A DNA stretch of 64,000 nucleotides from Leucoraja ocellata. Lineage: Eukaryota. The notes below the pieces were generated by a model. The model did not search any database. It was given only the letters and a program-made list of their open reading frames with translations, and was not told where the DNA came from. The position numbers and the translations under genes were made by a program. The stretch spans positions 1 through 64,000 of the forward strand of contig JAWMAR010001182.1 of the NCBI GenBank assembly GCA_036785375.1. Reading direction: 5' to 3'. Shown in pieces: positions 11,816 to 60,556 of the stretch. The stretch's first letter is position 1. Every line of letters begins with the position of its first letter.

Positions 11816-14191
11816 ATGAGTTGGAAGCGGCATTTGGAAGTTGAATATTATTATTATCCAATTCTGGCAGCAATCGGAGTACCCGGTAGGTCAAGGGAAC
11901 GCAGTAAGTGGGACTGAGACGTGGGATGAAGTGTTGATAAAGACAATGTTAAAGGTAAAGTGTAAATAGTGTGCGAAACACGGGAATGCTAGACTGCATT
12001 CTTCAGGTTAGGGCGGTATTAACTAGAAAATGTTTGTTTAAGAAATTACTGCAGTTGCTGGAGATAATCGAATCTAGACAAACATGCTGGAGAATTAGAC
12101 AGCGGGTGAAGCGGCATCTAGGAAGCGAAAGAATAGGTGACGTTTCGGGTCGAGACTGATCAGTCTGAAAAAGGGTCTCGACACGAAACGTCGCCTATTC
12201 CTTTGTTAAGCTACTTGTTCGTTGGTCGTTCATTGGATCTGGCACAGGTTAATTCTCTTCAGATTCAGGTTTAGGTGCATTGTTGTCATGTCTCTCTGGG
12301 AGCTGCAAAAAGCGATGGTTTGCAAGAAATCAAAATTAGATCAAATAATATTAAATAACAGTACAAACAATTCAATCTCAGTAACAGGTAGTGTAAAAGG
12401 GGAAATCGGAGTTCAGCGCGTAGTTCAAGTTTGGGAGCGCACTGCAGCGTATCACTTCCACAAAGCCCAATGTCCGCAAGGGGATATAGGTGAAACGGCA
12501 ATGCCCTGGCATATGGAAGAGCGGCTCAGAAGCCTGAGAACAGAGGGGGAGGAGCTGTTCTGGAGTCTGGTGGAGCGAGCTTTAAGCCTTCTCCATTTTC
12601 TGCCCGACGAGAGCAGGAAGTAGAAGGAATGAGCGGGGTGAAACATGTCTCCGTTTCCAAGGGATTGTGAAGTGCGAACGCAGTCAACAGTGCGGAGTCC
12701 ATTTCGTGATATGGACCCGGCGTCTTCCAGAACCCTGTGCAATTTATTCTTTATAGGGCATAGATGGACCCACAACAAGCTTTGTGCGGCACCGTTGTTG
12801 AGAATTATTGTGGAAGGGTGTTATCACTAATTCTCTCGGTTTATTCTTTAGGAAGTTGAGTATCCATTCGCAAGCTGGTGCACTGATCGCTGGGCTCTGG
12901 AGTTTATCAATGGGTTTGGATGGGAGTAGTGTTGAAGGCAAGTTCTCCAGCGGAGAAATGGGAACCCGACTTTCGACTCCTTGTTGGCCGGCTGTTCCCG
13001 GGAAGGGTTTAGGTCCAGGACGACGGCGTCTGATGCGGACATGTTGCTGCAATATGCAGTCTGCGGTGCATCACGGGTGGCTGGGAGACAGCTCACGCTA
13101 CCTGCGTAGACCGCTGCTAATTAATCCGCACAGCTCCTTGGCAAGCACCCAGGTTTGCATGTGGGCAGTTGTTTTCGAACAAATAAGCAAATCGTAACCA
13201 AGTTTGACCCCCGCCTCCAAATTTGCATCACGTGTCTCTTACATGTAACTACAGTTTCCTCTTTTCTACACCCGCAGTGAACTTGCTGGCAATTGTGATC
13301 CTGTCGCGCAGAAATTGTGGTCTCTCCAAATGCACCACTCGGTACCTGGTGGCCATGGCGACTGTGGACCTCTTGGTGATCGTCTGCGAAGTGATATTAA
13401 ATCGGATTGCCGACCTTTACTGGATGAAAACATTCCTCTTCCACAATACTGTGTGCAGGTTCATTATGTTCCTCGCTCCCGCGGCCGTTGCCTGTTCTGT
13501 TTGGCTCACGGTTGCTTTCACATTTGATCGCTTTGTGGCCATTTCCACTCAGACTCTGAGAACCAGATACTGCACTGAGAGAACCGCGCTGGTGGTTATA
13601 GTCACCCTAACTGCGTTCTTCTGTTTACAGAACGTCCCCTGGCCTTTTGCGTACAATTATTATTTCAGGGATCAGCAGGGTATACAGTGGGGTTGCCTAA
13701 TACGATATCAGTTTTATAGCCTATCCTCGTGGATAGCTTTTTCCTGGACTCAACAGCTGCTAGTCCCAGTCATTCCATTTTGTTTGATTATGCTGATGAA
13801 CGTGCTCACAGTCAGACGCATTTTAGTGGCCAGTCGTGTCCGCAGAAAACTCCGCGATCTCAGTAGTGAGGACCCCGAGATCGCAAACCGCAGACGGTCC
13901 GTAATTTTACTCCTTGCAATCTCTAGCAGTTTTATGCTGCTCTGGGGCACAAACGTAGCATATTTCGTTTTCTATCGAATTACGAATGCATTTATGTACA
14001 GGGGGTTCAAGAACCCATATGCAACATTTGATCAAACAGGAATTCTGCTACAACTGTTGAACACCTGCACAAACACGCTCATTTACACCGTGACACAGAG
14101 GAGGTTCAGACAGCATCTGCTCCAGGTACTCATGCACCCCTTCACCCTAACTGTAAGTTTAATAAAATCGAGAAAATCTGGTGTAAAATAA
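11816..14191 (+). CDS. GPR139/GPR142-like class A GPCR, copy 1; join(11816..11885,13278..14191), 327 aa
   Basis: Exon 1 ATG at 11816 encodes MSWKRHLEVEYYYYPILAAIGVP and ends in phase 1 at G|GTAGGT. The acceptor cttttctacacccgcAG at 13276-13277 restores GVPV-NLLAIVILSR. Seven hydrophobic segments with AMATVDL (TM2), TM3 Cys plus ECL2 WGC, FDRFVAI (DRY-like), SSFMLLW (TM6) and LNTCTNTLIY (TM7). Family call is from motif recognition, not a search. Confidence 0.92.
12260..13200 (-). mobile_element. Old Rex1/Babar-like LINE remnant filling most of the GPCR intron (all four copies)
   Basis: LLSSGRKWRRLKARSTRLQNSSSPSVLRLL and CEWILNFLKN resemble the Rex1 RT and C-terminal region. Confidence 0.6.
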
Positions 14192-14779
14192 CATTACAAA
14201 TCCTTGTGTGAGTAAGTGCAAAAACTAGGTAATGAAGGAGTTTTCTCTGAAATCTTTCCGCATCAATTTTCCAAAAAATAGCTTAGAAAATCAAGCTGAA
14301 CGCGCCCCTTGCACTGGAATGCACATTTGGCCATCTATTTAACATACGACACGGGCTCGTTGTTCAAAGTGCCCAATGGGAAGGGCGGCCATGTGGAACC
14401 GAGTGCTATGTTGTACTGGAGCAGACCTCCAATGATTCCGGAATTGAGCCTCGCCGTTAACTGTTTCCACATTCCTTTGAATCCAGCGGCAAAGTCTCCA
14501 GCACGTTATGAAAACAGACATAGTTATGGTCCTAAACATTGCATGCTCCATTACTCTACACTTCTTTGAGACGTTCCATGGTTACTTGTGTAAATGCCCA
14601 GTGCACCACTGTGTTCCATAAAATTACTGCTGCAACATTTACATTAATGAGAGTTCCATTTTATATTTGTTTCTCGCACTGAATGTAATGCATCGTTGCT
14701 TCTTACTGAGGTTTTCGGTTTCCATTGCAATTCTTAATTCTGCACCAGATGCAGGCAAAGGTAGTGGGTGCCGTTCAAA

Positions 14780-16780
14780 CTGCCACGCAGATTTGTTACA
14801 TCCGCAAACTTGCTAGTGTTGCTCCACATTCCCACTTCCAAATCATTAATATATGGTGAAAATTTGCGGCCCCAACACCGAGCATTGAGGCACTCCACTC
14901 GCCACTGCATGCCATTCTGAAAAGGACCCGTTCACCCCTACTCTTATCTTCATTTCTGCCAACCAATTTTCTATCCATGTCAACACCCTATTCCCAATAC
15001 CATGTGCTCTAATTTTAGTCACCAGTTTCCCGTGCGGCACCTTATCAAAGGCTTTCTGAAAGTCTAGATACTCTACATCCAATGGACCCCCTCCAACCAT
15101 TAACTTGTCACAACCTCAAAAAATTCCCGAAGATTAGTCAAGCGTGATTTCCCTTTCATAAATCTATGTATACTTGGACTAATCCTTTGCCTATCCAAAT
15201 GCCCCATTATTACCTCTTTATTAATTGACTCCAGCATCTTATCCACCACCGAAGTCAGGCTAACTGGTCTGTAATTCCCCGTTTTTTCTCTCGCTCCTTT
15301 CTTGAAAAGTGGGAAGACATAAATAATTTGGAAGACATAAATAATTTGCCGTAAATAGCAGGGGACCGGGGATCAAATAAGATGGAGGAACGGAGTGAAA
15401 TGCATGTTAGTCGGGAAGTGGTGTGATGTAAATTGAATGGATTAAAGGCCGATAAATCCCCAGGGCCAGATAGGTTGCATCAATGGATGTAGCCCCGGAA
15501 ACAGTGGATACATCAGTGATAATTTTTCAAAACTCTTCAGATTCTGTAGTAGTACCTGAGGATTGGAGGGTAGCCCCACTTTTTAAAAAGGGGTGGAGAG
15601 AGAAAACGGGGAATTACAGACAAGTTAGTCTAACATCGGTAGTGGGGAAACTGCTAGTCAGTTATTAAAGATGGGATAGCAGCACATTTGGAAAGTGGTG
15701 AAATCATTCGACAGTCAGCATGGATTTATGAAAGCTAAATCATGTCTGACGAATCTTATAGCATTTTTCGACGATGTAACTAGTAGAGTGGATAAGGGAG
15801 AACCAGTGGATGTGGTGTATCTAGACTTTCAGAAGGCTTTCGACAAGGTCCCACATAAGAGATTAGTACGCAAACGTAAAGCACACGGTATTGGGGGTTC
15901 AGTATTGATGTGGATAGATAACCTGCCGGCAAACAGGAAGCAAAGTGTAGGAGTAAACGGGTCCTTTTCAGAATGGCAGGCAGTGACTAGTGAGGTAACA
16001 CATGGCTCAGTGCTGGGACCCCAGCTATTTACTATATATATTAGTGATTTGGACGAGGGAATTAAATGCAACTTCTCCAAGTTCGTGGATCACACGAAGC
16101 TTGGGGGCTGTATTACTGTGAGGAGGATGCTAGGAGGCTGTAAGGTAACTTGGATAGGCTGCGCGAGTGGGCAAATCCATGACAGATGCAGTATAATGTG
16201 GATAACCATATAACAATATAACAATTACAGCACGTAAACAGGCCATCTCGACACTTCTAGTCCGTGCCGAACACATATTCTCCCCTAGTCCCACATACCT
16301 GCGCCCAGTCCAGAACCCTCCATTCCTTTCCCGTCCATATAACTATCCAATTTATTTTTAAATGATAATAACGAACCTGCCTCCACCACCTTCAGTGGAA
16401 GCTCATTCCACACAGCCACCACTCTCTGAGTAAAGAAGTTCCCCCTCATGTTACTCCTAAACTTCAGTCCCTTAATTCTCAAGTGATGTCCCCTTGTTTG
16501 AATCTTCCCTACTCTCAGTGGGAAAAGCGTGTCCACATCAACTCTCCCTATCCCTCTCATCATTTTAAAGACCTCTATCAAGTCCCCCTTAACCTTCCGC
16601 GCTCCCAATAATAAAGCCCAAACTTGTTCAACCTTCCTCTGTAACTTCGTTGCTGAAACCCAGGCAACATTCTAGTAAATCTCCTCGGTAGTCTCTCTAT
16701 TTTGTTGACATCCTTCCTATAATTAGGCGACCTAAATTGTACACCATACGCCGGAATTGGCCTCACCAATGTGAGGTTAA
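14780..16780. mobile_element. CR1 RT fragments with an internal inversion (minus 14780-15310, plus 15311-16205) and a nested CR1 3' fragment (minus 16205-16770)
   Basis: YLDFQKAFDKVPH and SGVPQGSVLGP motifs on both strands; the same inversion junction occurs at about 62400. Confidence 0.8.
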
Positions 16781-27142: not shown

Positions 27143-29526
27143 ATGAGTTGGAAGCGGCATTTGGAAGTTGAATATTATTATTATCCAATTCTGGCAGCAA
27201 TCGGAGTACCTGGTAGGTCAAGGGAACGCTGTAAGTGGGACTGAGATGTGGGATGATGTGTTGATAAAGACAATGTCAAAGGTAAAGTGTAAATAGTGTG
27301 CGAAACACGGGAATGCTAGACTGCATTCTTCAGGTTAGGGCGGTATTAACTAGAAAATGTTTGTTTAAGAAATTACTGCAGTTGCTGGCGATAATCGAAT
27401 CTAGAAAAACATGCTGGAGAATTAGACAGCGGGTGAAGCGGCATCTATGAAGCGAAAGAATATGTGACGTTTCGGGTCGAGACTGATCAGTCTGAAGAAG
27501 GGTCTCGACCCGAAACGTCACCTATTCCTTTGTTAAGCTACTTGATCGTTGGACGTTCATTGGATCTGGCACAGTTTAATTCTCTTCAGATTCAGGTTTA
27601 GGTGCATTGTTGTCATGTATCTCCGGGAGCTGCAAAAAGCTTCGGTTTGCAAGAAATCCAAATTAGATCAAATAATATTAAATATCAGTACAAACAATTC
27701 AAACTCAGTAACAGGTAGAGTAAGAGGGGAAATCGGAGTGCAGAGCGTAGTTCAAGTTTTGGAGCGCACTGCAGCGTATCACATCCACAAAGCCCAATGT
27801 CCGCAAGGGGATAGAGGTGAAACGGCAATGCCCTGGCATATGGAAGAGCGGCTCACAAGCCTGACAACAGAGGGGAAAGAGCTGTTCTGGAGTCTGGTAG
27901 AGCGAGCTTTAAGCCTTCTCCATTTTGTGCCCGACGAGAGCAGGAAGTAGAAGGAATGAGCGGGGCGAAACATGTCTCCGTTTCCAAGGGATTGTGAAGT
28001 GCGAACGCAGTCAACAGTGCGGAGTCCATTTCGTGATATGGACCCGGCGTCTTCCAGAACCCTGTGCAATTTATTCTTTATGGGGCATAGGTGGCCCCAC
28101 AACAAGCTTTGTGCGGCACCGTTGTTGAGAATTATTGTGTGTTACCACTAATTCTATCGGTTCATTCTTTAGGAAGTTGAGTATCCATTCGCAAGCTGGT
28201 GCACTGATCGCTGGGCTCTGGAGTTTATCAATGGGTTTGGATGGGAGTAGTGTTGAAGGCAAGTTCTCCAGCGGAGAAATGGGAATCTTACTTTCGACTC
28301 CTTTGTTGCCCGGCTGTTCCCGGGAAGGGTTTAGGTCCAGGACGACGGCGTCTGATGCGGACATGTTGCTGCAATATAGAATCTGCGGTGCAACAAGTGT
28401 GGCTGGGAGACAGCTCACGCTACCTGCGTAGACCGCTGCTAACTAATCCGCACAGCTCCTTGGCCAGCACCCAGGTTTGCATGTGGGCCAGTTGTTTTCG
28501 AACAAATAAGCAAAGCGTGCCTTAAATTGATCCCCGCCTCCAAATTAGCATCGCGTTTCCCTTGCATGTAACTACAGTATCCTCTTTTCTACACCCGCAG
28601 TGAACTTGCTGGCAATTGTGATCCTGTCGCGCAGAAAGTGTGGTCTCTCCAAATGCACCACTCGGTACCTGGTGGCCATGGCGACTGTGGACCTCTCGGT
28701 GATCGTCTGCGAAGTGATATTACATCGGATTGCCGACCTTTACTGGATGAACACATTCCTCTTAAACAATACTGTGTGCAGGTCCATTATGTTCCTCGCT
28801 CCCGCGGCCGTTGCCTGTTCTGTTTGGCTCACGGTCGCTTTCACATTTGATCGCATTGTGGCCATTTCCACTCAGAATCTGAGAACCAGATACTGCACCG
28901 AGAGAACCGCGCTGGTGGTTATAGTGACCCTAACTGCGTTCTTCTGTTTACAGAACGTCCCCTGGCCTTTTGCGTACATTTATTACCTCAGGGATCAGCA
29001 GGGTACACTGTGGGGTTGCCGAATACGATATCAGTTTTATAGCCTATCCTTGTGGATAACATTTTCCTGGACTCAACAGCTGCTAGTCCCAGTCATTCCA
29101 TTTTGTTTGATTATGATGATGAACGTGCTCACAGTCAGACGCATTTTAGTGGCCAGTCGTGTCCGCAGAAAACTCCGCGATCTCAGTGGTGAGGACCCCG
29201 AGATCGCAAACCGCAGACGGTCCGTAATTTTACTCCTTGCAATCTCCAGCAGTTTTATGCTGCTCTGGGGCACAAATGTAGTATATTTCGTTTTCTATCG
29301 AATTACGAATGCATTTATGTTCAGGGGGTTGATGAACCGATTTGCAACATTTGAACAAACTGGAATACTGCTACAACTGTTGAACACCTGCACAAACACG
29401 CTCATTTACACCGTGACCCAGAGGAGGTTCAGAGAGCAGCTGTTCCAGGTACTCATATACCCCTTCACCCTAACTGTATGTTTAATAAAATCGAGAAACC
29501 GGTGTAAAATAACATTACATTACTAA
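27143..29526 (+). CDS. GPR139-like GPCR, copy 2; join(27143..27212,28601..29526), 331 aa
   Basis: Same 70-nt exon 1 (MSWKRHLEVEYYYYPILAAIGVP, G|GTAGGT), acceptor AG at 28599-28600, uninterrupted 7TM ORF with DRI motif; C-terminus extended to RNRCKITLHY. Confidence 0.92.
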
Positions 29527-34290: not shown

Positions 34291-34419
34291 GTCCAACCGT
34301 GAGAACTTGCAAAATCGTTACCGACAGCTACGACACTACGCCGCCTAATTTATTCCTAGCCTGTTCAACCTATCCTTTCAGCGAAGTCCTTGGAGGTAGT
34401 ATAGTAGAGCTATGATCTG

Positions 34420-34848: not shown

Positions 34849-35687
34849 AAGGAACAACCTTCCAGTGAAGGTGTTGTCATGTTGCTGTTGTGAAGGAATT
34901 CCCAGACTATAGCGATGTCGAGAAGTAATTCAGTACCGGATCATTGAGCAAAAACAGTAATTACGGCCTTAAGGTATTTGCACATTTGTGCAGTCGCGCA
35001 TTGGGAAGGCGTCATGAGTATTTAAAGTGTTTAATTTTACTGCCCTCGTGTGAATATCCATCAGGGGATTAATTTCATCAGTTGCTGTAGCTATGTATCT
35101 GGTGTCCAGTGATATATCCTGCGACACAGATCTGGATTACTCAGCAAGGCCCAATGGTGAACTACCCATCTGCATTACTGATAATCCGCCATTTGCGGTA
35201 AATAGTTTGGTTTATTGACTTCCTATTCTTCCCGCGTCCCGGATGATTTTTCTGCAATAAGTGAAGGCCAATGACCACCTGAAATTAGAATGTCTGTCAG
35301 GGTGTTGGTGAAGTGGAATTGGTTAACGTAATTGTGACAATTCCGGGCCAGCCAATCCTCCATCCAGTGACACCCTAGTTTGTCTGATTAAAACAGAAAA
35401 TTCTGCAGTTATTAACCAGGTTATCCAGGACTAAGAGAGAATGAAACAGAACACACGTTTCAGATATCTGGTCACATGTTCTATCTCGCTGTCATAAGAG
35501 CTCTTGTAATTCTCTGCAGCTAGCGGCTAATGTTATGGAAACGGATTCCGGAGAAGCAGCTCGCAGTTGGAAACAATAAAACCACCAGAACACCTGCACA
35601 CAATGAAAGCAAACCGACAACTGAGAGAGAACAGGAAAGCAGGCACATCCTACCGCATGAGCGGAGCAGAGAGCAAGACACAGGCGA

Positions 35688-35725
35688 TGTTTTTGTAAGG
35701 GGCTTAACTTGTTTCCATCACTGTG
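35688..35725 (-). promoter_or_regulatory. Recombination signal sequence (23-class, 22-nt spacer) of TRV1
   Basis: Minus strand: CACAGTG-atggaaacaagttaagcccctt (22 nt)-ACAAAAACA; perfect heptamer, 8/9 nonamer. Confidence 0.93.
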
Positions 35726-36196
35726 CGCCACAGTGCGCAGTAATAGACTGCAGAGTCGCTGAGATCCAGCCCTGAGATACTCAAGCTGGTGAACTTAGTC
35801 GCGGTATTGAGCTCAATAGAGAAACGAGTGTCAGCGTATTGGGCCTTATCTTCATTGTTCCTGGTGTCTCTCCACATAGTAAACTCGGGCTGCATGCCTG
35901 GATATTGTCGGTACCAGAATAAAGTATATGCTGTCCATGTGGTATCATAGTTACAGGTTAAAGTCACCGCTTCTCCTTTTGTCTTCGTCGCCGAGGGCAG
36001 TGGCTGTGTGACAGATTCTCCGTGAATAGTGACTGTAAAATAAATATATTGAGATAGTAACAGACACCGGAGTGCCATGAGATTGCACTTCTCAAGCCAA
36101 AATGTCACTGAGGAGGGCGAGGGGAACTGAAAATATTGATCCAGAATTACCTGTCAGAAACGCTCCCCACACAACACAGATGCCGAGGAAACGCAT
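35726..36196 (-). CDS. T-cell receptor alpha/delta-type V gene segment 1; leader exon 36196..36151, V exon 36032..35726
   Basis: Leader MRFLGICVVWGAFLT ends at G|GTAATT; 118-nt intron; acceptor ttattttacAG. V domain ESVTQ...VTLTC...LFWYRQYPG...RFSIELNTATKFTSLSISGLDLSDSAVYYCALWR has canonical Cys/Trp/YYC and is followed directly by an RSS. WYRQYPG and YYCAL are typical of TRAV/TRDV. Confidence 0.92.
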
Positions 36197-39290: not shown

Positions 39291-39476
39291 CCTGTGTATG
39301 GAGCATGCTGCCGGTGAAGGTAGTTGAGGCAGGTACTGTCGCAACGTTTAAGACATATTGCGACAGGGATATGGATAAGATATGTTAACAGGAATATGGG
39401 CCAATCGTAGCCAGGTGGGGTGTGCAGATGGGGTACATTTTTGATCGTGGGCAGGTTGGGCCGGGGGACTATTTTT

Positions 39477-39994: not shown

Positions 39995-40049
39995 TTTTCA
40001 CGCTGTATGACACTAGAACTGTATGCCAAGATCGAAGAACAACAAGTCA

Positions 40050-43045
40050 TGTTGAGCGTGGCCCCTTAGACAAGAGTGACCATAATATGGTTGAGTTCTT
40101 CATTAGGATGGAGAGTGACATTTTCAATTCAGAAACAAGGAATCTGAACTTAAAGAAAAGTAACTTTGAGGGTATGAGACGTGAATTGGCCAAGGTTTAT
40201 TGGCATTTGATTCTTAAAGGGTCGACGGTGGATATGCAATGGAAGGCATTTAAAGACTGCATGGATGAACTACAACAATTGTTCATCCCAGTTTGGCAAA
40301 AGAATAAATCAGGGAAGGTAGTGCATCCGTGCATAACAAGGGAAATCAGGATAGTATCAAAACAAAAGATGAAGCGTACAAATTAGCAAGAAAAAGCAGC
40401 CTACCAGAGGACTGGGAGAAATTTTCGAGTCCAGCAGAGGAGGAGAAAGGGCTTAATGAGGAAATGGAACATAGATTACTGGCAGGGAACATAAAAACGG
40501 ACTGCAAATGTTTATATAGATATGTGAAGAGAAAACGATTAGTTAAAACAATTGTAGGTCCCTTGCAGTCAGAAACACGTGAATTGATCATAGGGAACAA
40601 GGACATGGCAGACCAATTGAATAACTACATTGGTTCTGTCTTCAATAAGGAAGACATAAATAATCTGCCGGAAATAGTAGGGGACCGCGGGAAAATTGAG
40701 ATGGGGGAACTGAGTGAAATCCAGGTTAGCCGAAAGTGGTGTGAGGTAAATTGAATGGATTAAAGACTGATAAACCCCCAGGGCCAGATAGGCCGCATCC
40801 CAGAGTACTTAAGGAAGTAGCCCCAGAAATAGTGCATGCATTAGTGATAATTTTTAAAAACTCCTTAGATTCTGGAGTAGTTCCTGTGGATTGGAGGGTA
40901 GCTAATTTACCCCACTTTTAAAAAAGTAGGGAGAGAGAAAACTGGGAATTACAGACCAGTTAATCTAGCATCGGTAGTGGGGAAACTGCTAGAGTGTTAT
41001 TAAAGATGGGTTAGCAGCACATTTGGAAAGTGGTGAAATCATTGGAGAAAGTCAGCATGGATTTACGAAAGGCAAATCCAGTTGAGCAGAGGGATCTGGG
41101 AATAACCGTGTATAGTTCCTTAAAGGTGGAATCTCATATAGATAGGGTGGTAAAGACAGCTTTTGGTATGCTAGACTTTATAAATCAGAGCATTGAGTAT
41201 AGAAGCTGGGATGTAATGTTAAAATTGTACAAGGGATTGGTGAGACCAAGTCTGGACTATGGTGTACACTTTTGGTCGCCCAATTATAGGAAGGATGTCA
41301 ACAAAATAGAGAGAGTACAGAGGAGATGTACTAGAATGTTGCCTGGGTTTCAACAACTAAGTTACATAGATAGGTTGAATAAGTTAGGTCTTTATTCTCT
41401 GGAGCGCAGAATGTTAAGGGGGGACTTGATAGAGGTCTTTAAAATGATGAGAGGGATATACAGAGTTGATGTGGACAAGCGTTTCCCTTTGAGAATAGGG
41501 AAGATTCAAACAAGAGGACATGATTTCAGAATTAAGGGACATAAGTTTAGGGGTAACATGAGGGGGAACTTCTTTACTCAGAGAGTGGTAGCGGTGAGGA
41601 ATGAGCTTCCAGTGGAAGTGGTGGAGGCAGGTTCGTTGGTATCATTTAAGAATAAATTGGATAGGCATATGGATGAGAAGGGAATGGAGGGGTATGGTAT
41701 GAGTGCAGGGAGGTGGGACTAAGGGAAACAAGTTGTTCGGCACGGACTTATAGGGCCGAGATGGCCTGTTTCCGTGCTGTAATTGTTATATGGTTATATG
41801 GTTATATGTCTGACGAATCTTATGGAATTTAACGAGGATGTAACTAATGGAGTGGATAAGGGAGAACCAATGGATGTGTTATATCTGGACTTCCAGAAGT
41901 CTTTCGACAAGGTCCCACATTAGAGATTAGTATACAAACTTAAAGCACACGGTATTGGGGGTTCAGCATTGATGTGGATAGAGAATTGGCTTGCAAACAG
42001 GAAGCAAAGAGTAGGAGTAAACGGGTCCTTTTCAGAATGGCAGGCAGTGACTAGTGGGGTACTGCAAGGCTCAGTGCTGGGAACTCAGCTATTCACAATA
42101 TATATTAATGATTTGGACGAGGGAATTGCATGCAACATCTCCAAGTTTGCGATGACACGAAGGTGGGGGGCAATGTTAGCTGTGAGGAGGATGCTGAGAG
42201 GCTGCAGGGTGACTTGGATAGGCTGGGTGAGTGGGCAAATGCATGGCAGATGTAATATAATGTGTATACATGTGAGATTATCCACTTTGGTGGCAAAACC
42301 AAGAAAGTAGACTATTATCTGATTGGTAGCCGATTAGGAAAAGGGGAGATGCAACGAGACCTCGGTGTCATGGTACACCAGTCATTTAAAGTAGACATGC
42401 AGGTGCAGCAGGCAGTGAAGAAAGCGAATGGTATGTTACCATTCATAGAAAAATGATTTGAGTATAGGAGACAACACCAGGAGTATTGCGTACAGTTTGT
42501 TCTCCAAATCTGAGGAAAGACATTCTTACCATAGAGGGGGTACAGATAAGGTTCACCAGACTGACTCCTGGGATGTCAGGACTTTCATATGAAGAACGAC
42601 TTGATAGACTCGGCTTGTACCCGCTACATTTTAGAAGATTGAGGGGGGATCTTATAGAAACTTACAAAATTCTTAAGGGGTTGGACAGGCTAGGTGCAGG
42701 AAGATTGTCCCCGTTGTTGGGGAAGTCCAGGACAAGGGGTGACAGTTTAACGATAAAGGGGAATTCTTTTAGGACCCAGATGATAAAAACATTTTTTTCC
42801 CACAGAGAGTGGTGAATCTCTGGAACTCTCTGCCACAGAAGGTAGTTGAGGACAGTTCATTGGCTATATTTAAGAGGGGGTTTGATATGGCCCTTGTGGG
42901 TAAAGGGATCAGGGGGTATGGAAAGAAAGCAGGAACAGGATACTGAGTTGGATGATCAGCCATGATCATATTGAATGGCGGTCAGGCTCGAAGGGCCGAA
43001 TGGCCTACTCCTGCAACTATTTTCTATGTTTCTATTTTTCTATGT
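40050..43045 (+). mobile_element. About 3-kb CR1 LINE ORF2 fragment with a nested CR1 3' insertion at about 41080-41806
   Basis: MADQLNNYIGSVF, YLDFQKSFDKVPH and GSVLG motifs; the nested piece (ORF 41030-41722) ends in (atatggtt)n and splits KGKS|CLTNL. Confidence 0.85.
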
Positions 43046-44303: not shown

Positions 44304-46677
44304 ATGGGTTGGAAGTGGCACTTGGAATTGGAATATTATTATTATCCAATTCTGGCAGCAATCGGAGTACCCGGTAGGTGAAGGGAACGCAGTAAGTGGG
44401 ACTGAGATGTGGGATGATGTGTTGATAAAGACAATGTCAAAGGTAAAGTGTAAATAGTGTGCGAAACACGGGAATACTAGACTGCATTCTTCAGGTTAGG
44501 GCGGTATTTGAAAATGTTTGTTTAAGAAATTACTGCAGTTGCTGGAGGCATCGAATCTAGACAAAAATGCTGGAGAATTATACAGCGGGTGAAGCGGCAT
44601 CTATGAAGCGAAGGAATAGGTGACGTTTCGGGTCGAGACTGATCAGTCTGAAGAAGGTTCTCGACCCGAAACGTCACCTATTCCTTTGTTAAGCTACTTG
44701 ATCGTTGGTCGTACATTGGATCTGGCACAGGTTAATTCTCTTCAGGTTTAGGTGCATTGTTGCCATGTCTCTCCGGGAGCTGCAAAAAGCTTTGGTTTGC
44801 AATAAATCCAAATTAGATCAAATAATATTAAATAACAGTACAAACAATTCAATCTCAGTAACAGGTAGTGTAAAAGGGGAAATCGGAGTGCAGAGCGTAG
44901 TTCAAGTTTGGGAGCGCACTGCAGCGTATCACTTCCACAAAGCCCAATGTCCGCAAGGGGATAGAGGTGAAACATGGAAATGACAATACCCTGGCATATG
45001 GAAGAGCTGCTCAGAAGCCTGACAACAGAGGGGAAAGAGCTGTTCTGGAGTCTGGTGGAGCGAGCTTTAAGCCTTCTCCATTTTCTGCCCGACGGAGCAG
45101 GAAGTAGAAGGAATGCGCGGGGTGAGACATGTCTCCGTTTCCAAACGATTGTGACGTGCGAACGCAGTCAACAGTGCGGAGTCTATTTCGTGATATGGAC
45201 CCGGCGTCTTCCAGAACCCTGTGCAATTTATTCTTTATGGGGCATAGGTGGCCCCACAACAAGTTTTGTGCGGCACCGTTGTTGAGAATTATTGTGGAAG
45301 GGTGTTACCACTAATTCTCTCGGTTCATTCTTTAGGAAGTTGAGTATCCATTCGCAAGCTGGTGCACTGATCGCTGGGCTGTGGAGTTTATCAATGGGTT
45401 TGGATGGGAGTAGTGTTGAAGGCAAGTTCTCCAGCGGAGAAATGGGAATCTTACTTTCGACTCGTTTGTTGCCCGGCTGTTCCCGGGAAGGGTTTAGGTC
45501 CAGGACGATGGCGTCTGATGCGGACATGTTGCTGCAATATGCAGTCTGCGGTGCAACAAGTGTGGCTGGGAGACAGCTCACGCTACCTGCGTAGACCGCT
45601 GCTAATTAATCCGCACAGCTCCTTGGCATGCACCCAGGTTTGCATGTGGGCCAGTTGTTTTCGAACAAATAAGCAAAGCGTGCCCTAAATTGATCCCCGC
45701 CTCCAAATTAGCATCGCGTTTCCCTTACATGTAACTACAGTTTCCTCTTTTCTACACCCGCAGTGAACTTGCTGGCGATTGTGATCCTGTCGCGCAGAAA
45801 TTGTGGTCTCTCCAAATGCACCACTCGGTACCTGGTGGCCATGGCGACTGTGGACCTCTCGGTGATCGTCTGCGAAGTGATATTACATCGGATTGCCGAC
45901 CTTTACTGGGCGCACTCATTCCTCTTCCACAATACTGTGTGCAGGTCCATTATGTTCCTCGCTCCCGCGGCCGTTGCCTGTTCTGTTTGGCTCACGGTTG
46001 CTTTCACATTTGATCGCTTTGTGGCCATTTCCACTCAGAATCTGAGAACCAGATACTGCACCGAGAGAACCGCGCTGGTGGTTATAGTCACCCTAACGGC
46101 GTTCTTCTGTTTACAGAACGTCCCCTGGCCTTTTGCGTACAGTTATTATTTCAGGGATCAGCAGGGTATACCGTGGGGTTGCCGAATCCGATATCACTTC
46201 TATAGCCTGCCCCCGTGGATTGTATTTTCCTGGAGTCAACAGCTGCTAGTCCCAGTCATTCCATTTTGTTTGATTATGCTGATGAACGTGCTCACTGTCA
46301 GGCGCATTTTAGTGGCCAGTCGTGTCCGCAGAAAACTCCGCGATCTCAGTAGTGAGGACCCCGAAATCGCAAACCGCAGACGGTCCGTAATTTTACTCCT
46401 TGCAATCTCCAGCAGTTTTATGCTGCTCTGGGGCACAAACGTGGCATATTTCGTATTCTATCGATGTACGATTGCATTTATGTACAGGGGGTTGAAGAAC
46501 CCATTTCCAACATTTGAACAAACTGGAATTCTGCTACAACTGTTGAACACCTGCACAAACACGCTCATTTACACCGTGACCCAGAGGAGGTTCAGAGAGC
46601 ATCTGATCCAGGTACCCATGTACCCCTTCACCCTAACTGTACGTTTAATAAAATCGAGAAATCCTTGTGTAAAATAA
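44304..46677 (+). CDS. GPR139-like GPCR, copy 3; join(44304..44373,45764..46677), 327 aa
   Basis: Exon 1 MGWKWHLELEYYYYPILAAIGVP, GT-AG intron 44374..45763, intact 7TM exon 2. Confidence 0.92.
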
Positions 46678-50965: not shown

Positions 50966-52451
50966 GAACATATTTGCTCCTATACTCAATTCCACTTGTT
51001 ATGCAGGCCAACGTGCGATTAGCTTTCTTCACTGCCTGCTGTACCTACATGCTTACTTTCAGTGAGTGATGTACAAGGACCCCAATTGATACCGATCACC
51101 TTCTCAAGAGCAAAAGTTTCCCTCCCGTTCCAGTTAAATATTTCCCCTCTCGCCTTTAACCTAATTCCTCTGGTTCTTGATACTCTAACTCTGGGTAAAG
51201 TACAAGATACAAGATACATTTATTTGTCACATGTACCAGTTCGTACAGTGGAATGTGTGATCACCATATAACCATACAATAAAATAAAGAACACAACACA
51301 CGATAGAGTCCAACATAAAACATCCCCACACAGCAGAATCAAAGTTTCCCACTGTGATTCACGTGTGATTCACGTTGTCCAATCGATAAAGATTTCATAC
51401 ACTCAGCCTCCTCCGCCCAAGGAATATAGGCTCAAGATATCAAATATCCGTCGTGGACACAGGCCATTCTTCCTACATAATCTGCGCTCACCCCATCCAG
51501 TGGCACTATACTACAAGCTGGAGACAAGTTACAATTTACAGATATTTAAAAATACGCATTTCGAGTCTGGGAAGAATCCGGAACAACCGGAGAAAACCCA
51601 GGCAGTCATCAGAATCTGAATCGGAATCAGAATGCGGTTTATTGGCATTATTTATTTAGCGAATGCAAAGTCCTTTAGCCAATCAGTTGCCTCTTGATCT
51701 GCTGTATGAAGGGTGACAAGTCTTCCTTTGAGTCTTTGTTGAGGACATGCTTCAATGATGTGTTGCATTGTTTGCTGCTCACCACATGCACACCGTGAGG
51801 TTGGACTGCCATTTAAACATAGGTTCAAACGAAATTACGTTCCTGCAGTCATAACAACAACAAAAAAACACAATTATCTCAATTGCACACAAACATCCAT
51901 CACAGTGAATCTCCAAACAACTCCTCACTGTGATGGGAGGCAAAAGTATTATCTCTTCCCTTTTCTGTTCTTTATTCTTCTTCCGCAATCTAGCAGTCAA
52001 ACTGCTGCATCGAGCTGATCGAGGCTTTTGATGTTGGAGCCCCGGCGGGCGATGGTAAGTCCCGCGGCCGCGTCGGGCGATAGAGAGTCCTGCTACGGGT
52101 CGATTTAAACCCCTCGATTCGAGCGGGAGATGTTACCGTTACGCAAGCTCCAAAAAACGGTCTCCCACCAGGGACCTGCGAGCTCCCGATGTTACCGTCC
52201 ACAGGGTCTGCGGCCGGAGACTCAGCAGCCCCGAAGTCGGGTCGCAGCCGCGCGCCGCCACAGGGCTCCGCGCTCCGACGTCGGCCCGCTCCGCGATGGT
52301 GAGTCCGCAGGGTGTGCGACTGGAGCCCCAGGTCGATTCCGATTGGACCCCGCCGGCTGCACGATGTTAGTCCCCAACGACAACGGAGACTCGACAGGGA
52401 AAATGTCCAGTTCGAGTCCCCGTACAGGGAAGAGATTTAAAAGCCCCCCCC

Positions 52452-52482
<31 letters not shown>

Positions 52483-53670
52483 CTCCCCCCGCAAACGTCC
52501 TCCCTCCACACACACAAACACAGCTAATAAACCAAAACATACAACTAACAAGTCAAAAACAAATAAAAGACAGACCGTAGGGGCCTCTGCCGCGAGGCGC
52601 CGCCATTTTGTCCAAACAGGAGAATTTACTAAATCGTTACTGTCAGCACCGTACTCAGGATCTAAACGGGTCTCTGACAGTGTAATGCCCCTGTCCCACT
52701 TAGGAATTAGTTTACCTTCCGGTGGGTCTTCAGTGTAAGGGAGCAACTCTCCAGCTACGACACTATGCCGCCTAATTTATTCCTACACTGCTCAAACTAT
52801 CCTTTTTGCGAGGTCCCTCGAGGGAGTACAGTAGAGCTATGATCTAGTGAAGGTGTTGTCATGTTGCTGTTGTGGAGGAATTCCCAGACTATAGCGATGC
52901 AGAGAAGTAATTCAGTACCGGCTCATGGAGCAAAAACAGTAATTACTGCATTAAGGTATTTGCACATTTGTGCAGTCACCCATTGGGAAAGGCGCCAGGC
53001 GTATTCAAAGGGTTTAATTTTACTTACCTCACGGGCATATCCATCAGGGTATTTATTTTAGCAGTTGCTGTAGCTATGCATCTGGTGTCTAGTGATATAT
53101 CCAGCGACACAGATCTGGATTACTCAGCAAGGCCCAATGGTGAACTACCCATCTGCATTACTGATAATCCGCCATTTGTGTTAAATAATTTGGTTTATTG
53201 ACTTCCTATTCTTCCCGCGTCCCGGACGATTTTTCTGCAAAAAGTGAAGGCCAATGACCACCTGAAATTAGAAAGTCTGTCAGGGTGTTGGTGAAGTGGA
53301 ATTGGTTAACGTAATTGTGACAATTCCGGGCCAGCCAATCCTCCATCCAGTGACACCATAGTTTTTCTGATTAAAACAGAAAATTCTGCAGTTATTAACC
53401 AGGTTCTCCAGGACTGAGAGAGAATGAAACAGAACACACGTTTCAGATCTCTGGTCACATGTTCTATCCCGCTGTCATAAGAGCTCTTGTAATTCTCTGC
53501 AGCAAGTGGCTAATGTTATGGAAACGGATTCCGGAGAAGCAGCTCGCAGTTGGAAACAATAAAACCACCAGGACACCTGCACACAATGAAAGCAAACCGA
53601 CAACTGAGAGAGAACAGGAAAGCAGGCACATCCAACCGCATCAGCGGAGCAGAGAGCAAGACAAAGGCGA

Positions 53671-53708
53671 TGTTTTTGTAAGGGGCTTAACTTGTTTCCA
53701 TCACTGTG
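53671..53708 (-). promoter_or_regulatory. Recombination signal sequence (23-class, 22-nt spacer) of TRV2
   Basis: CACAGTG-22 nt-ACAAAAACA, identical to the TRV1 RSS. Confidence 0.93.
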
Positions 53709-54179
53709 CGCCCCAGTGCGCAGTAATAGACTGCAGAGTCGCTGAGATCCAGCCCTGAGATACTCAAGCTGGTGAACTTAGTCGCGGTATTGAGCTCAAT
53801 AGAGAAACGAGTATCAGCGTATTGGGCCTTATCTTCATTGTTGCTGGTGTCTCTCCTCATAGTAAACTCGGGCTGCATGCCTGGATATTGTCGGTACCAG
53901 AATAAAGCATATCCAGTCAATGTGGTATCATAGTTACAGGTTAAAGTCACCGCTTCTCCTTTTGTCTTCGTCGCCGTGGGCAGTGGCTGTGTGACAGATT
54001 CTCCGTGAATCGTGACTGTAAAATAAATATATTGAGATAGTAACAAACACCGGAGTGCCATGAGATTGCACTTCTCAAGCCAAGATCTCACTGAGGAGGG
54101 CGAGGGGAACTGAAAATATTGATCCAGAATTACCTGTCAGAAACGCTCCCCACACCACACAGATGCCGAGGAAACGCAT
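53709..54179 (-). CDS. T-cell receptor alpha/delta-type V gene segment 2; leader exon 54179..54134, V exon 54015..53709
   Basis: Same leader, intron and V architecture as TRV1, open frame ending DSAVYYCALGR, followed by an RSS. Confidence 0.92.
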
Positions 54180-54291
54180 TTTCCTCGTTCACTATGTACT
54201 TGCAGAGTTCGAAACTTGAAGAGACAAAAACTGGATCGTTTTCTCAGTCAAAGGGCGTCTGCTGGTCTCGCTGTCACTGCCCTGTGGCCCC

Positions 54292-54304
54292 AGTGATGTC
54301 GTCA
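54292..54304. promoter_or_regulatory. Possible CRE/decamer-like TCR V promoter element (copy 1 at 36301..36313)
   Basis: AGTGATGTCGTCA / AGTGATGGAGTCA about 105-125 bp upstream of the V leader ATG, resembling the TCR V promoter decamer AGTGAYRTCA. Confidence 0.3.
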
Positions 54305-56117
54305 GAGATGTGGGTGGGCAGCGGGGTCATAGCCAATTGAAATACACGTAACCGGAATCCAGCTTCCCCCCCGAGAGTATTCGCATCCGCTTGAACAAAC
54401 CTTGATTGAGGAAGGCATATTTGTTCCTGTAACCGGTAATGAAGGTGCGAAGCCTGAGATTGTTAAGCGAAACAATAATAAGGTGCATATTCACAAATGG
54501 AATAGATCGGGTAAACTCACAGTCTCTTGGCCAGATTGAGGGGCGATCGAGAAACAGAGAACATAGATTGAAGTTGAGTGGGGAGGAAGATTTAATAGAG
54601 ACCAGAAGGGTAACTTTTTCATGCAAAGGGGGCGGCGCATGGAACGCGCTGACGGAGGTAGTTGTTAAGGCAGGTACAATCGCAAAGTTTAAGAAGAACA
54701 TTGACATGTACATGAATAGAGCTGATGTTGAGGGATATGGGCGAAACGCTTGCGGGTAGGACTGGTGTGGATGGAACATGTTGGTCGGTGTGGGCATGCT
54801 GGGCCGAAGGGTATGTTTCCACGCTGTAAGACTCTATGATGCCTTGATTCTAAAAAAAAAACACCACTGTATTATCGGCATCCGTCCAAAGGCGACAGGC
54901 ATTGGTCAGATCTACAGTCGATTCGGCCGTGTCGAGAAAATGGGAGTTATTACGATATTTTGGCGTTTTCATTGAGAAATGCACGTGGTTTCTATATGAA
55001 GTAAATTACAAGCAAAGCCGGAAGTATGTGCAAGGAGCCACTTTCAATCAGTTTTCAGTTCCACTCCCCTCCATCTGCCATGTTTTGACCAATGAAATTA
55101 TTTCCTGAGGACCTCATCCCATCGAGTCCACGCCAACCATCGATGACCCGATCACTTTCGTTCCATGTTATTCCACTTTTCCATCTATTCCTTACACACT
55201 TGGTGCATGTTTACACAGGCCAATTCACCTAAAATAACCACACGTATTTTGGATACGGGAGGAAATCAGAGCACCTGGACGATACCGACACGGTCACAGC
55301 GAGACGGGAAAACTCCACTCAGACATTACCCGAGGACAGGATTGATCCCGGATCTCTGAAGCTTTGAGGCAGCAGCTGCGCCACTGAACCGACAAAATGT
55401 GTGATTTGTTTTTATAAAGATTGCAGCTGGGTGATTGTTGAACTTTAACCACAGCTAGCCGACAAAATAGGTTTGGAATTTCCATGAGTTTCAGCATTAT
55501 ATCGAGTGGTCTAGTGATCTGCATTCTGCGCACCGACCGCTGCTGCCTGGATTGCGTTCGTGGTCAGGGAGTAGGGCGGTTTATTTCTGCTTCCAGTGGA
55601 AACATTATTAGACCGCGCATCGTTCAGTCTGTGTAGTTTCAGCGTCGCCTCCACCACGTGAACAGTTAGCAGCTGATTAACATTAAAATGATGCACTTAT
55701 GCAAAATACACAAACATTAATGCTACCAACGGCTAACAATACCATAATCCCGACAGGATCAGGCGGCCAGGGCTTTCAGATACAAATTAATATTGAGATT
55801 CACATTCAAAATATATCTCCAAAATCGAAGAAAATATATGCCAACAATGGCCCACAAATCATCTTTTCGAATATGCTAACTATACAACGTGTTGTGCGTC
55901 ATGTAAACTACATGTAACACTTGCTCGCGGAATGGCGTGGATATCAGGGTAGTTGGGGAGGAGCAGCCATACATTGAGAAATCGTAACATTTGGCTAGGT
56001 CTTTACATGGAAATGGTTCCGCCTTCACAGACCTCGACTATGGGAAAAACAACTGCGATTATTGTGAATTGTGGAATTATAGTACGTCACGTTTTTGAAT
56101 TTCAAAATATACTTTAT

Positions 56118-56925
56118 GGGCAAATGCATGGCAGATGCAATATAATGTGTATACATGTGAGGATATCCACTTTGGTGGCAAAACCAAGAAAGTAGACTAT
56201 TATCTGAATGGTAGCCGATTAGGAAAAGGGGAGATGCAACGAGACCTGGGTGTCATGGTACACCAGTCATTTAAAGTAGACATGCAAGTGCAGCAGGCAG
56301 TGAAGAAGGCGAATGGTATGTTAGCATTCATAGAAAAATGATTTGAGTATAGGAGACAACACCAGGAGTATTGCGTACAGTTTGTTCTCCAAATCTGAGG
56401 AAAGACATTCTTACCATAGAGAGAGTACAGAGAACGTTCACCAGACTGACTCCTGGGATGTCAGGACTTTCATATGAAGAACGACTTGATAGACTCGGCT
56501 TGTACTCGCTACATTTTAGAAGATTGAGGGGGGGTCTTATAGAAACTTACAAAATTCTTAAGGGGTTGGACAGGCTAGATGCAGGAAGATTGTCCCCGTT
56601 GTTGGGGAAGTCCAGGACAAGGGGTGACAGTTTAACGATAAAGGGGAATTATTTTAGGACCCAGATGAGAAAAATATTCTTTTCACACAGAGAGTGGTGA
56701 ATCTCTGGAACCCTCTGCCACAGAAGGTAGTTGAGGCCAGTTCATTGGCTATATTTAAGAGGGGGTTTGATATGGCCCTTGTGGGTTAAGGGATCAGGGG
56801 GTATGGAAAGAAAGCAGGAACAGGATACTGAGTTGGATGATCAGCCATGATCATATTGAATGGCGGTCAGGCTCGAAGGGCCGAATGGCCTACTCCTGCA
56901 ACTATTTTTATGTTTCTATTTGTCT
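56118..56925 (+). mobile_element. CR1 3' fragment
   Basis: Nearly identical to 42237-43045. Confidence 0.8.
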
Positions 56926-58186
56926 ATGTTAATTGGCTTGATTAAAAAAAAAGTTAAATTATCCAACTTGGCGATATGCAGAGTACTGCCCTGCCTACTT
57001 CAAAATTCAGAAGGTTCAGTAGGTAATACTTGAACTGATCATCTTCTCATATTTTAACCCTCCATAACTCATCATGGTTTTGTTCGCTGCAGAGGGAAAA
57101 CAATTCTGCATTATCCAGTCCATCTCACAATTCACACTGTCAAATACTAGCATCATTCGTGTGAGGAGAGTTGCATACTCCCTAGTTTAAATTGATCCGT
57201 AATTCATTATTTCGAAAAATAATATCCCTGTGCCTGTGCTGTACTGCATTGTGAAGTTTCTTTTCCTGCGAATTCCTTAGGTCGAGTGCAGCAAACATGA
57301 CACTTCTTTCTTAGGTCAAATCTTTCTTCAGAATGATCTATCCCCAAACATTTACAGCCGATCAGACCCATTCAATTCGTTCTATCATCTTGCACATCAA
57401 CATTCGTGATATCTCAAAAGGATTAATGCATTGAGAAGATTTCGCCCTAATATCTGGAATAACACCAACAGCTGTTCACCTCTGTGTTTTATGATTTAAC
57501 ACATTCATTTAAAGATAGCCTGTTGATCAAGAATATTTCTAGCCGCTGTTTATTTCCAGTCAGTTGTCACATTACACATTATATTCGCCTATTCTTTACT
57601 TCATGAAGTGGCAACAGTTGAAATACATTAATGCTGCTGTTGTAGCTGAATTGTATACGATGTCGTCTAGAAGGTTCCCTGTGGTTTACATCATTTAGAC
57701 CCTGCCAAAATATGATTATCTTTCCTTTTGAAAGGCAGCTCCACGGATATTGCAAGATGAAATTATTAATGGGTGCATGTTAAATGAAGGGAACGGTTTC
57801 TGGAAAATGCATTGCAAATGCGACAAGTAATATACTGTATTACATCGCAGCATGTGTGGATAAATGCTACAATACACGAATTTTCCTGCATCTGTGTGCC
57901 ATGCGTTAAAATTAAAAAATAGAATGATCACTCGTATTTTACAGTTCCTTTGTTCTGTTGGTGCTCAGCTGGTGCCTGAGCAGCGAGCGGTCGCATAATG
58001 AGTTTGATCGCGTTGCATCACCTGGGAGCAAACTGTTTGTTCAACGGTCCACAATAAATGTCCGCGGGGAGGTGAACGCACGCAGTCCTTAAGTTTTTCA
58101 AAGAATATAAATATAGCGCTGTTTGACTTCTCACTTTGACTCCTATAAGTTTTGCACTGCATAACTGCGGACGGCTTGAAGGAAAA

Positions 58187-60556
58187 ATGAGTTGGAAGTG
58201 GCACTTGGAAGTGGAATATTATTATTATCCAATTCTGGCAGCAATCGGAGTACCCGGTAGGTGAAGGGAACGCAGTAAGTGGGACTGAGATGTGGGATGA
58301 TGTGTTGATAAAGACAATGTCTAAGGTAAAGTGTAAATAGTGTGCGAAACGCGGGAATGCTAGACTGCAATCTTCAGGTTAGGGCGGTATTAACTAGAAC
58401 ATGTTTGTTTAAGAAATTACTGCAGTTGCTGGAGATAATCGAATCTAGACAAAAATGCTGGGGAATTATACAGCGGGTGAAGCGGCATCTATGAAGCGAA
58501 GTAATAGGTGACGTTTCGGGTCGAGACTGATCAGTCTGAAGAAGGGTCTCGATCCGAAACGTCACCTATTCCTTTGTTAAGCTACTTGATCGTTGGTCGT
58601 TCATTGGATCTGGCACAGGTTAATTCTCTTCAGGTTTAGGTGCATTGTTGCCATGTCTCTCCGGGAGCTGCAAAAAGCTTTGGTTTGCAAGAAATCCAAA
58701 TTAGATCAAATGATATTAAATAACAGTACAAACAATTCAATCTCAGTAACAGGTAGTGTAAGAGGGGAAATCGGAGTGCAGAGCGTAGTTCAAGTTTGGG
58801 AGCGCACTGCAGCGTATCACATCCACAAAGCCCAATGTCCGCAAGGGGATAGAGGTGAAACGGCAATGCCCTGGCATATGGAAGAGCGGCTCAGAAGCCT
58901 GACAACAGAGGGGAAAGAGCTGTTCTGGAGTCTGGTGGAGCGAGCTTTAAGCCTTCTCCATTTTCTGCCCGACGGAGCAGGAAGTAGAAGGAATGAGCGG
59001 GGTGAGACATGTCTCCGTTTCCAAAGATTGTGAAGTGCAAACGCAGTCAACAGTGCGGAGTCCATTTCGTGATATGGACCCGGCGTCTTCCAGAACCCTG
59101 TGCAATTTATTCTTTATTGGGCATAGATGGTCCCACAACAAGCTTTGTGCGGCACCGTTGTTGAGAATTATTGTGGAAGGGTGTTACCACTAATTCTCTC
59201 GGTTTATTCTTTAGGAAGTTGAGTATCCATTCGCAAGCTGGTGTGCTGCTCGCTGGGCTGTGGAGCTTATCAATGGGTTTGGATGGGAGTAGTGTTGAAG
59301 GCAAGTTCTCCAGCGGAGAAATGGGAATCTTACTTTCGACGCCTTTGTTGCCCGGCTGTTCCCGGGAAGGGTTTAGGTCCAGGACGATGTCGTCTGATGC
59401 GGACATGTTGCTGCAATATAGAGTCTGCGGTGCAACAAGTGTGGCTGGGAGACAGCTCACGCTACCTGCGTAGACCGCTGCTAATTAATCCGCACAGCTC
59501 CTTGGCAAGCACCCAGGTTTGCATGTGGGCCAGTTGTTTTCGAACAAATAAGCAAAGCGTGCCCTAAATTGATCCCCGCCTCCAAATTAGCATCGCGTTT
59601 CCCTTACATGTAACTACAGTTTCCTCTTTTCTACACCCGCAGTGAACTTGCTGGCAATTGTGATCCTGTCGCGCAGAAATTGTGGTCTCTCCAAATGCAC
59701 CACTCGGTACCTGGTGGCCATGGCGACTGTGGACCTCTCGGTGATCGTCTGCGAAGTGATGTTACATCGGATTGCTGACCTTTACTGGGGGCACTCATTC
59801 CTCTTACACAATACTGTGTGCAGGTCCATTATGTTCCTCGCTCCCGCGGCCGTTGCCTGTTCTGTTTGGCTCACGGTCGCTTTCACATTTGATCGCTTTG
59901 TGGCCATTTCCACTCAGAATCTGAGAACCAGATACTGCACTGAGAGAACCGCGCTGGTGGTTATAGTGACCCTAACTGCGTTCTTCTGTTTACTGAACGT
60001 CCCCTGGCCTTTTGCGTACATTTATTATTTCAGGGATCGGCAGGGTACACTGTGGGGTTGCCAAATACGATATCACTTTTATAGCCTCTCCTCGTGGATA
60101 ACATTTTCCTGGACTCAACAGCTGCTAGTCCCAGTCATTCCATTTTGTTTGATTATGCTGATGAACGTGCTCACAGTCAGACGCATTTTAGTGGCCAGTC
60201 GTGTCCGCAGAAAACTCTGCGATCTCAGTAGTGAGGACCCCGAGATCGCAAACCGCAGACGGTCCGTAATTTTACTCCTTGCAATCTCCAGCAGTTTTAT
60301 GCTGCTCTGGGGCACAAACGTGGCATATTTCGTATCCTATCGATGTACGATTGCATTTATGTACAGGGGGTTGAAGAACCCATTTGCAACATTTGAACAA
60401 ACTGGAATTCTGCTACAACTGTTGAACACCAGCACAAACACGCTTATTTACACCGTGACCCAGAGGAGGTTCAGAGAGCATCTGCTCCAGGTACTCATGT
60501 ACCCCTTCACCCTAACTGTAAGCTTAATAAAATCGAGAGAATCTGGTGTAAAATAA
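58187..60556 (+). CDS. GPR139-like GPCR, copy 4; join(58187..58256,59643..60556), 327 aa
   Basis: Exon 1 MSWKWHLEVEYYYYPILAAIGVP, GT-AG intron 58257..59642, intact 7TM exon 2. Confidence 0.92.

Follow-up and report, generated by a model that had tools for sequence, protein, structure and literature searches.

Extracellular-loop variation among tandem copies of an expanded orphan receptor family in the skate Leucoraja ocellata

GPR139 and GPR142 are vertebrate orphan class A G protein-coupled receptors (GPCRs) with L-Trp, L-Phe and certain peptides as activators. The subject of this article is a related group of receptors, represented by four tandem gene copies in a 64,000 nucleotide stretch of the genome of the skate Leucoraja ocellata (contig JAWMAR010001182.1, positions 1 to 64,000; hereafter the window) and by many further copies elsewhere in the assembly. 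The four copies differ mainly in their extracellular loops (ECLs), and the loops have probably been diversified by positive selection in a family whose members also exchange sequence by recombination.

The GPR139/142 clan is placed as sister to protostome neuropeptide receptors in the part of PMC8557429 available to us, and the accessible sections of PMC8807744 define the GPR139 agonist site by residues E3.32, F3.33, H5.43, R6.51 and N7.38/39. Cartilaginous fishes are credited with a "relative paucity" of GPCRs in a passage of PMC8455134, and the catshark reportedly carries only 2 canonical and 6 odorant receptor (OR)-like genes, according to an excerpt of PMC11979771. In their accessible portions the genome papers on the catshark and the whale shark emphasise how small the receptor repertoires are and never use the term "GPR", and a search of the open-licence literature yielded no published description of a chondrichthyan expansion of these receptors.

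Where the four copies differ

The window carries four intact two-exon class A GPCR genes, all on the + strand, with the following features:

11735..11740, + strand: TATA-like box of gene 1, 81 nt 5' of the start codon; putative, from sequence only
27062, 44223 and 58106, + strand: TATA-like boxes of genes 2, 3 and 4, at the site equivalent to that of gene 1; putative on the same basis
11816..11885, + strand: gene 1 (W1) exon 1, encoding the N-terminus and the first half of transmembrane helix 1 (TM1); found by tblastn with the N-termini of relatives, with GT donor and in-frame splice
13278..14191, + strand: gene 1 (W1) exon 2, from the end of TM1 to the stop; PF00001, seven helices in the AlphaFold model
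27143..27212, + strand: gene 2 (W2) exon 1; tblastn and splice check
28601..29526, + strand: gene 2 (W2) exon 2; PF00001, longer tail
44304..44373, + strand: gene 3 (W3) exon 1; tblastn and splice check
45764..46677, + strand: gene 3 (W3) exon 2; PF00001
58187..58256, + strand: gene 4 (W4) exon 1; tblastn and splice check
59643..60556, + strand: gene 4 (W4) exon 2; PF00001, 60556 being the end of the stop

Each gene has a first exon of 70 nt, followed by a phase-1 GT-AG intron of 1386–1392 nt, and the encoded proteins are 327–331 aa long (W1, 327 aa; W2, 331 aa). An earlier sequence-only reading had given the span 13278..60556, the ends of which coincide exactly with the first base of gene 1 exon 2 and the stop of gene 4; it located the second exons and overlooked the short first ones. 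The PF00001 (7tm_1) domain scored 41.6–68.1 bits in all four proteins against a cut-off of 30.5, three of them being scanned from the TM2 Met. The exon 2 protein is predicted to form a seven-helix bundle with a helix 8 (AlphaFold pLDDT 88.8, pTM 0.84) and shows a Foldseek TM score of ~0.7 to peptide receptors, many of which rank alike so that no single relative stands out. Micro-switches N1.50, D2.50, DRF, W6.48, N7.49 and Y7.53 are kept, as is the TM3-ECL2 cysteine pair C83/C163, while P6.50 and P7.50 are both replaced by Thr. The GPCR copies lie in duplicated blocks of 4–6 kb with 92–95% identity.

Variation between the four copies was compared over codons 25–321, with regions set by the AlphaFold helices and by our own motif-anchored generic numbering, on which the pocket mapping also rests. 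Variable residues amount to 18 of 45 in the ECLs and 11 of 53 in the helix tops, with 6 of 128 in the inner transmembrane segments, 4 of 46 in the intracellular loops and 7 of 25 in helix 8 and the C-terminal tail. Taken together, the ECLs and helix tops vary at 29 of 98 positions, as against 10 of 174 for the core and intracellular regions (Fisher p=2.9e-7), and codons with nonsynonymous changes stand to those with synonymous changes only at 29:10 in the former and 10:12 in the latter (p=0.03). The sequence-only reading had proposed this clustering in the loops above a near-invariant core, and all twelve loop strings that it quoted, together with the invariant EDPEIA...SSSF stretch, occur exactly in the sequence; the variable tail was missed. 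The proportion of nonsynonymous differences (pN) in the loops is 0.12, which is 2.0 times the gene-wide synonymous proportion (pS; bootstrap 1.1–3.5), whereas the intracellular pN/pS of ~0.3 is consistent with a shared signalling interface. Two sharks show the same excess, with 23/45 loop against 11/174 core positions and 25/45 against 37/174 variable, in protein sets of 90%-identity cluster representatives that speak to clustering only and not to dN/dS.

The variation at a "pocket rim" that had also been suggested holds for the vestibule and not for the helical pocket, where 33 of 36 lining positions are identical in the four copies. Among the larger sets of paralogs described below, clades A and B, heterozygosity at these 36 positions is 0.049 (A) and 0.031 (B), similar to the 0.040 and 0.021 in the rest of the core, and in the loops it reaches 0.247 and 0.196. 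Clade A and clade B differ from one another in the pocket at 3.32, 3.33, 3.37, 5.42, 5.43, 5.46, 6.51 and 7.36. Variation is thus two-tiered, the pocket differing by subfamily and the loops by paralog.

Probable loop selection in a recombining family

Four sequences are too few to settle the question of selection and further paralogs were therefore gathered and analysed over exon 2 (codons 25–321) with our own codon-model code. Clade A comprises the 49 closest loci of 131 genome matches, 48 of them 88–100% identical and one frameshifted. Full-length and open exons were found in 46 of the 49; of the three excluded loci one has a stop at codon 4, one lacks two codons and one is the frameshifted copy. 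The 46 reduced to 32 distinct sequences when copies within 9 nt were merged. Clade B, 66% identical to A, yielded 26 sequences from 35 loci after merging. In 11 of these 35 clade B copies (L073 and L075–L084) an in-frame deletion removes four codons of ECL2 directly 5' of the conserved cysteine; it occurs in two sequence versions and the genes are otherwise intact.

Recombination among the copies is evident from an incompatibility between sites that increases with distance (none of 500 permutations was as extreme). Moreover, the loops form mosaics, with a given ECL1 string paired with differing ECL2 and ECL3 strings across paralogs, and loop variants are shuffled between paralogs. This has consequences for the PAML M7/M8 check that had been proposed for this locus. 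On the real data such tests give large values: for the whole gene in clade A, likelihood ratio test statistics (LRTs) are 120 for M1a/M2a, with 7% of sites at omega 4.9, 129 for M7/M8 and 115 for M8a/M8, and the clade B value is 118, or 101 when the ECL2 deletion is masked. Yet in forward simulations that combined gene conversion with fully neutral loops the LRTs ranged over 60–242 (30 runs) and 11–234 (10 runs), although the simulated families recombine more than the real ones (long-range incompatibility 0.5–0.7 vs 0.26) and thus constitute a harsh null. Since the 40 neutral simulations span 11–242, M7/M8 would "confirm" selection whether or not it were present. Whole-gene site tests, being uninformative here, were dropped as evidence, and standard site models are not to be trusted for arrays of this kind.

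More resistant to recombination is a tree-free count of the fewest changes linking the codons seen at each site. For the 32 clade A copies, it yields an ECL nonsynonymous rate 1.48 times the gene-wide synonymous rate, a value attained in 2 of 260 neutral-loop conversion simulations (280 runs, less 20 with fewer than 12 distinct sequences). The corresponding ratios are 1.61, 2.96 and 1.56 in the three A subclades and 1.48 in the 26 clade B copies. The intron provides a second yardstick for the 12-copy subclade that includes the window genes, the only set for which the comparison is valid; intron types differ across all 32 copies, and the alignments of the other two A subclades, partly non-homologous, were not used. 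In this subclade, the intron diverges uniformly along its length (p of 0.046 overall; 0.031–0.051 in 100-column windows) while ECL pN is 0.120, and the loops carry 37 nonsynonymous changes where 19.3 are expected from the intron rate (1.9-fold, P=2e-4). When each extracellular segment was given a separate tree, M1a/M2a LRTs were 30.9 (A) and 14.6 (B), and ten neutral simulations treated in this way gave 0–28.5, all below the clade A value.

At the level of single codons, a grid model with free synonymous rates retained 11: six loop codons, three from the top of TM6, and one each in an intracellular region and the tail. Codon 73 appears in six forms that differ at positions 1 and 2 only. An excess of amino acid change is statistically supported for a minority of loop codons, namely 73, 74, 153, 164, 166, 258, 264 and 270. 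Mutational bias does not account for the pattern in the loops: variable sites make up 9 of 19 C/G positions in hotspots of activation-induced deaminase (AID) and 19 of 37 other C/G positions, and the loops are poorer in CpG than the core.

Several results weigh against selection. Average omega for the ECLs is 0.95 once the loops are allowed a rate of their own; this is one half of what the sequence-only reading had named as grounds against itself, namely an extracellular dN/dS neither above 1 nor above the rate expected from relaxed constraint. The ECLs have roughly double the synonymous diversity of the core (0.13 vs 0.06–0.07), loop pN relative to loop pS among the four copies is 1.5 (0.6–8.6) and not significant, and the hypervariable codons of clade A are not in excess of the ECL-local synonymous rate (P 0.2–0.8). 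Neutral loops evolved on the real tree at 0.7–1 times the rate match the observed number of codons with at least four residues in 36–99% of runs. Two codons outside the extracellular region, S220 and L314, also score as selected, and the overlap of five selected sites between clades A and B (p=0.01) falls to p=0.12 when assessed within the extracellular set only. The raised synonymous diversity is what selected "islands" resisting conversion would produce, and also what a locally older genealogy would. Clade B, with 36 nonsynonymous and 4 synonymous loop changes, is free of this ambiguity. On balance we consider diversifying selection on the loops, as the sequence-only reading had proposed, to be likely; it is favoured by the recombination-resistant counts and weakened by the doubled synonymous diversity. 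The core is under purifying selection.

Kinship, family size and genomic setting

The nearest named relatives of the window receptors are skate proteins (Leucoraja, 86%; Amblyraja, 64%), and named entries among the best 120 matches come from sharks, rays and a chimaera and are mostly labelled "probable G-protein coupled receptor 139". Orthology to GPR139 is nevertheless ruled out. The skate has a GPR139 of its own on another contig (C465), with 85% identity to human GPR139, and GPR142 also occurs elsewhere in the genome; the window receptors are only 22% identical to skate GPR139, fall in a separate clade (100/100) and carry A90, P91, Q183, N249 and I279 in place of the agonist-site residues, with W6.48 kept. 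The suggested lead towards aromatic amino acids, taken from mammalian GPR139/142, thereby loses its footing. Kinship with the GPR139/142 clan is nonetheless real. Among PDB entries the family profile matches GPR139 best (1e-19 vs 8e-15 for CCR5), a search of the skate genome with skate GPR139 retrieves the window family directly after GPR139 and GPR142, and the phase-1 intron before the TM1 Asn is common to both. In midpoint-rooted trees, of which the one giving the support value below came from a quick search, the chondrichthyan receptors cluster with genes that salamander, coelacanth and teleosts have in low copy number, and together they form a third lineage next to GPR139 and GPR142 (Shimodaira-Hasegawa-like approximate likelihood ratio test, 98). 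These relatives are possibly the "GPR210A/B" of PMC6504862, whose main text, as available, makes no mention of "shark"; the tree position is compatible with this.

An exact ten-codon family motif has 834 matches in the assembly, as against 0 for the reversed control, and searches with two queries scored 131 and 120 genome matches. Family members are found on many further contigs and in many further clusters, among them an array (C33:8272768-8314954) in which motifs are only 3–6 kb apart, far denser than in the window. GPR139 and GPR142 are each found twice, each pair within a single contig: the GPR139 copies (C465:705415-706347 and 753048-753980) are inverted, 47 kb apart and differ at 6 of 906 nt, and those of GPR142 are at C123:4606788 and 5087891. 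Such pairs could reflect either two haplotypes merged within a contig or genuine duplication in place. Given this doubling and the near-identity of the GPR139 copies, the assembly probably holds both haplotypes, which would leave about 400 family loci per haploid set, an estimate that covers motif-perfect members only and includes pseudogenes.

Between the GPCR genes lie two complete variable (V) segments of T-cell receptor (TCR) alpha/delta type, each with a 23-spacer recombination signal sequence (RSS):

35687..36196, - strand: V segment in the interval from GPCR gene 2 to gene 3, made up of a leader exon (36196-36151), a V exon (36032-35726) and a 23-spacer RSS (35725-35687)
53670..54179, - strand: V segment in the interval from GPCR gene 3 to gene 4, made up of a leader exon (54179-54134), a V exon (54015-53709) and a 23-spacer RSS (53708-53670)

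The former matches the V-set profile at 8e-14, and its best single-domain PDB matches are TCR Vdelta1/alpha chains. GPCR and V segment were duplicated together, and over the first 264 kb of the contig the count is 16 for receptor motifs and 9 for V segments with an RSS, the two kinds being interleaved. Comparison of the two V segments in the window shows 10 nucleotide differences in 307 nt and 7 residue differences, six of which fall in the regions of complementarity-determining region (CDR) 1, CDR2 and the start of CDR3, a small parallel to the variation in the adjoining receptor loops. Fragments of long interspersed nuclear element-type retrotransposons occur between the genes at 15728-16213 (RVT_1, 2e-10) and 41057-41722, and a run of 200 N lies near the window end (62888-63087). 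Intron 1 of gene 1 contains a short repeat (12085-12278) that attracts thousands of RNA reads from another organism and is therefore a common interspersed element; eight RNA runs from that source contained intronic repeat reads and a few diverged exon reads from other family members and are uninformative on W1–W4.

Explanations of the pattern and comparison with known systems

The best explanation, to which we give about even chances, is that the four genes arose by recent tandem duplication from an orphan class A GPCR, and that their loops were diversified by selection for different variants of a peptide-like ligand. Each copy would recognise a different variant and signal through a common conserved core, with gene conversion homogenising the core and shuffling loop cassettes while selection retained divergent loops; selection acting against conversion in this manner would explain the raised synonymous diversity of the loops. 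The helical pocket, fixed within a subfamily and differing between them, would anchor a common ligand end and the loops would read the variable part. A pocket that differs by subfamily and loops that differ by paralog would suit a large ligand whose anchor is shared and whose surface varies. On this view the family would provide a large set of sensory receptors for external peptides. The trait under selection would be ligand specificity, and the peptide nature of the ligand is putative, being deduced from kinship and the location of the variation.

Neutral drift of the loops under relaxed constraint, with gene conversion leaving older genealogies by chance and the copies persisting as redundant passengers in a repeat-rich TCR locus, seems to us improbable, although the ECL omega near 1, the raised ECL pS, the reproduction of the whole-gene LRTs by neutral simulation and the joint duplication with a V segment would all be expected from it, and class A GPCR loops are generally less constrained. 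Relaxation would cap the ratio near 1, whereas values of 1.5–3 were seen in all four subsets and 1.9 relative to the intron; 14 of 45 ECL residues are invariant and the loops are thus not wholly free; and the clade B counts, the open clade A exons and the lack of an AID-hotspot or CpG excess all speak for something other than drift. We judge similarly poor the prospects of an arms race, in which these would be leukocyte receptors whose loops detect microbial or parasite peptides, or evade a docking pathogen protein while the pocket keeps one ligand. Exposed loops that vary around a fixed pocket are what is expected of host entry receptors and the cluster does lie among TCR-type V segments, but the family extends over many other contigs, hundreds of loci are not needed for pure escape, and the mammalian TRA/TRD locus also holds olfactory receptor genes, which are not known to have a T-cell role. 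Chemoreception of small molecules, aromatic amino acids or the like, as by mammalian GPR139/142, is in our estimation quite unlikely: the profile match, the intron position and phase, and the pocket differences between subfamilies A and B would suit it, but the low identity to a skate GPR139 that is itself well conserved and the loss of the agonist residues do not, and variation between close paralogs avoids the pocket, unlike that of small-molecule odorant receptors.

Loop-focused diversification in a receptor array is already known and what is new here is the size of the family, its obscurity and the two-tier pattern. Several hundred intact, apparently selected receptors under the label "probable GPR139" would revise the receptor-poor picture of cartilaginous fishes and make the family a candidate for a missing receptor repertoire, sensory or immune. 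Paralogs that are ~90% identical and differ almost only in their loops also constitute a natural series of chimeras for deorphanisation. A bolder and distinctly tentative proposal, which we think may well prove wrong, is that each haploid genome of a cartilaginous fish encodes ~400 or more receptors that sense peptides, an overlooked repertoire descended from a third GPR139/142-clan lineage. Conversion would there shuffle three hypervariable loop cassettes on a fixed pocket to give combinatorial specificities, in a germline counterpart to the CDR loops encoded by the adjoining TCR V segments.

Compared with described systems, GPR139 and GPR142 are present as one locus each, whereas the window family has hundreds of copies; it also has the TM3-ECL2 cysteine pair, which GPR139 lacks. 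The low-copy bony-vertebrate relatives group with the chondrichthyan family, with no expansion among the matches examined. Protostome receptors of the MIP, proctolin, myosuppressin and FMRFamide type, the sister of GPR139/142, have also expanded (Srw-like and gastropod FMRFamide-like groups; for the snail, see an extract of PMC11589774), and look-alikes of the window family in a protein atlas include FMRFamide-receptor-like and Srw-bearing clusters; the chondrichthyan expansion differs in being independent and in a vertebrate. Finally, the OR, TAAR, V1R and MRGPR/FPR families share with the window receptors tandem birth-and-death arrays, a short N-terminus, coding mostly in one exon and, probably, diversification on the ligand side, and the window receptors lie among V segments as do the ORs of the mammalian TRA/TRD locus, but the homology is only at the class A level (PF00001 in the window), and among close paralogs of the skate family the variation lies in the loops rather than in the helical pocket.

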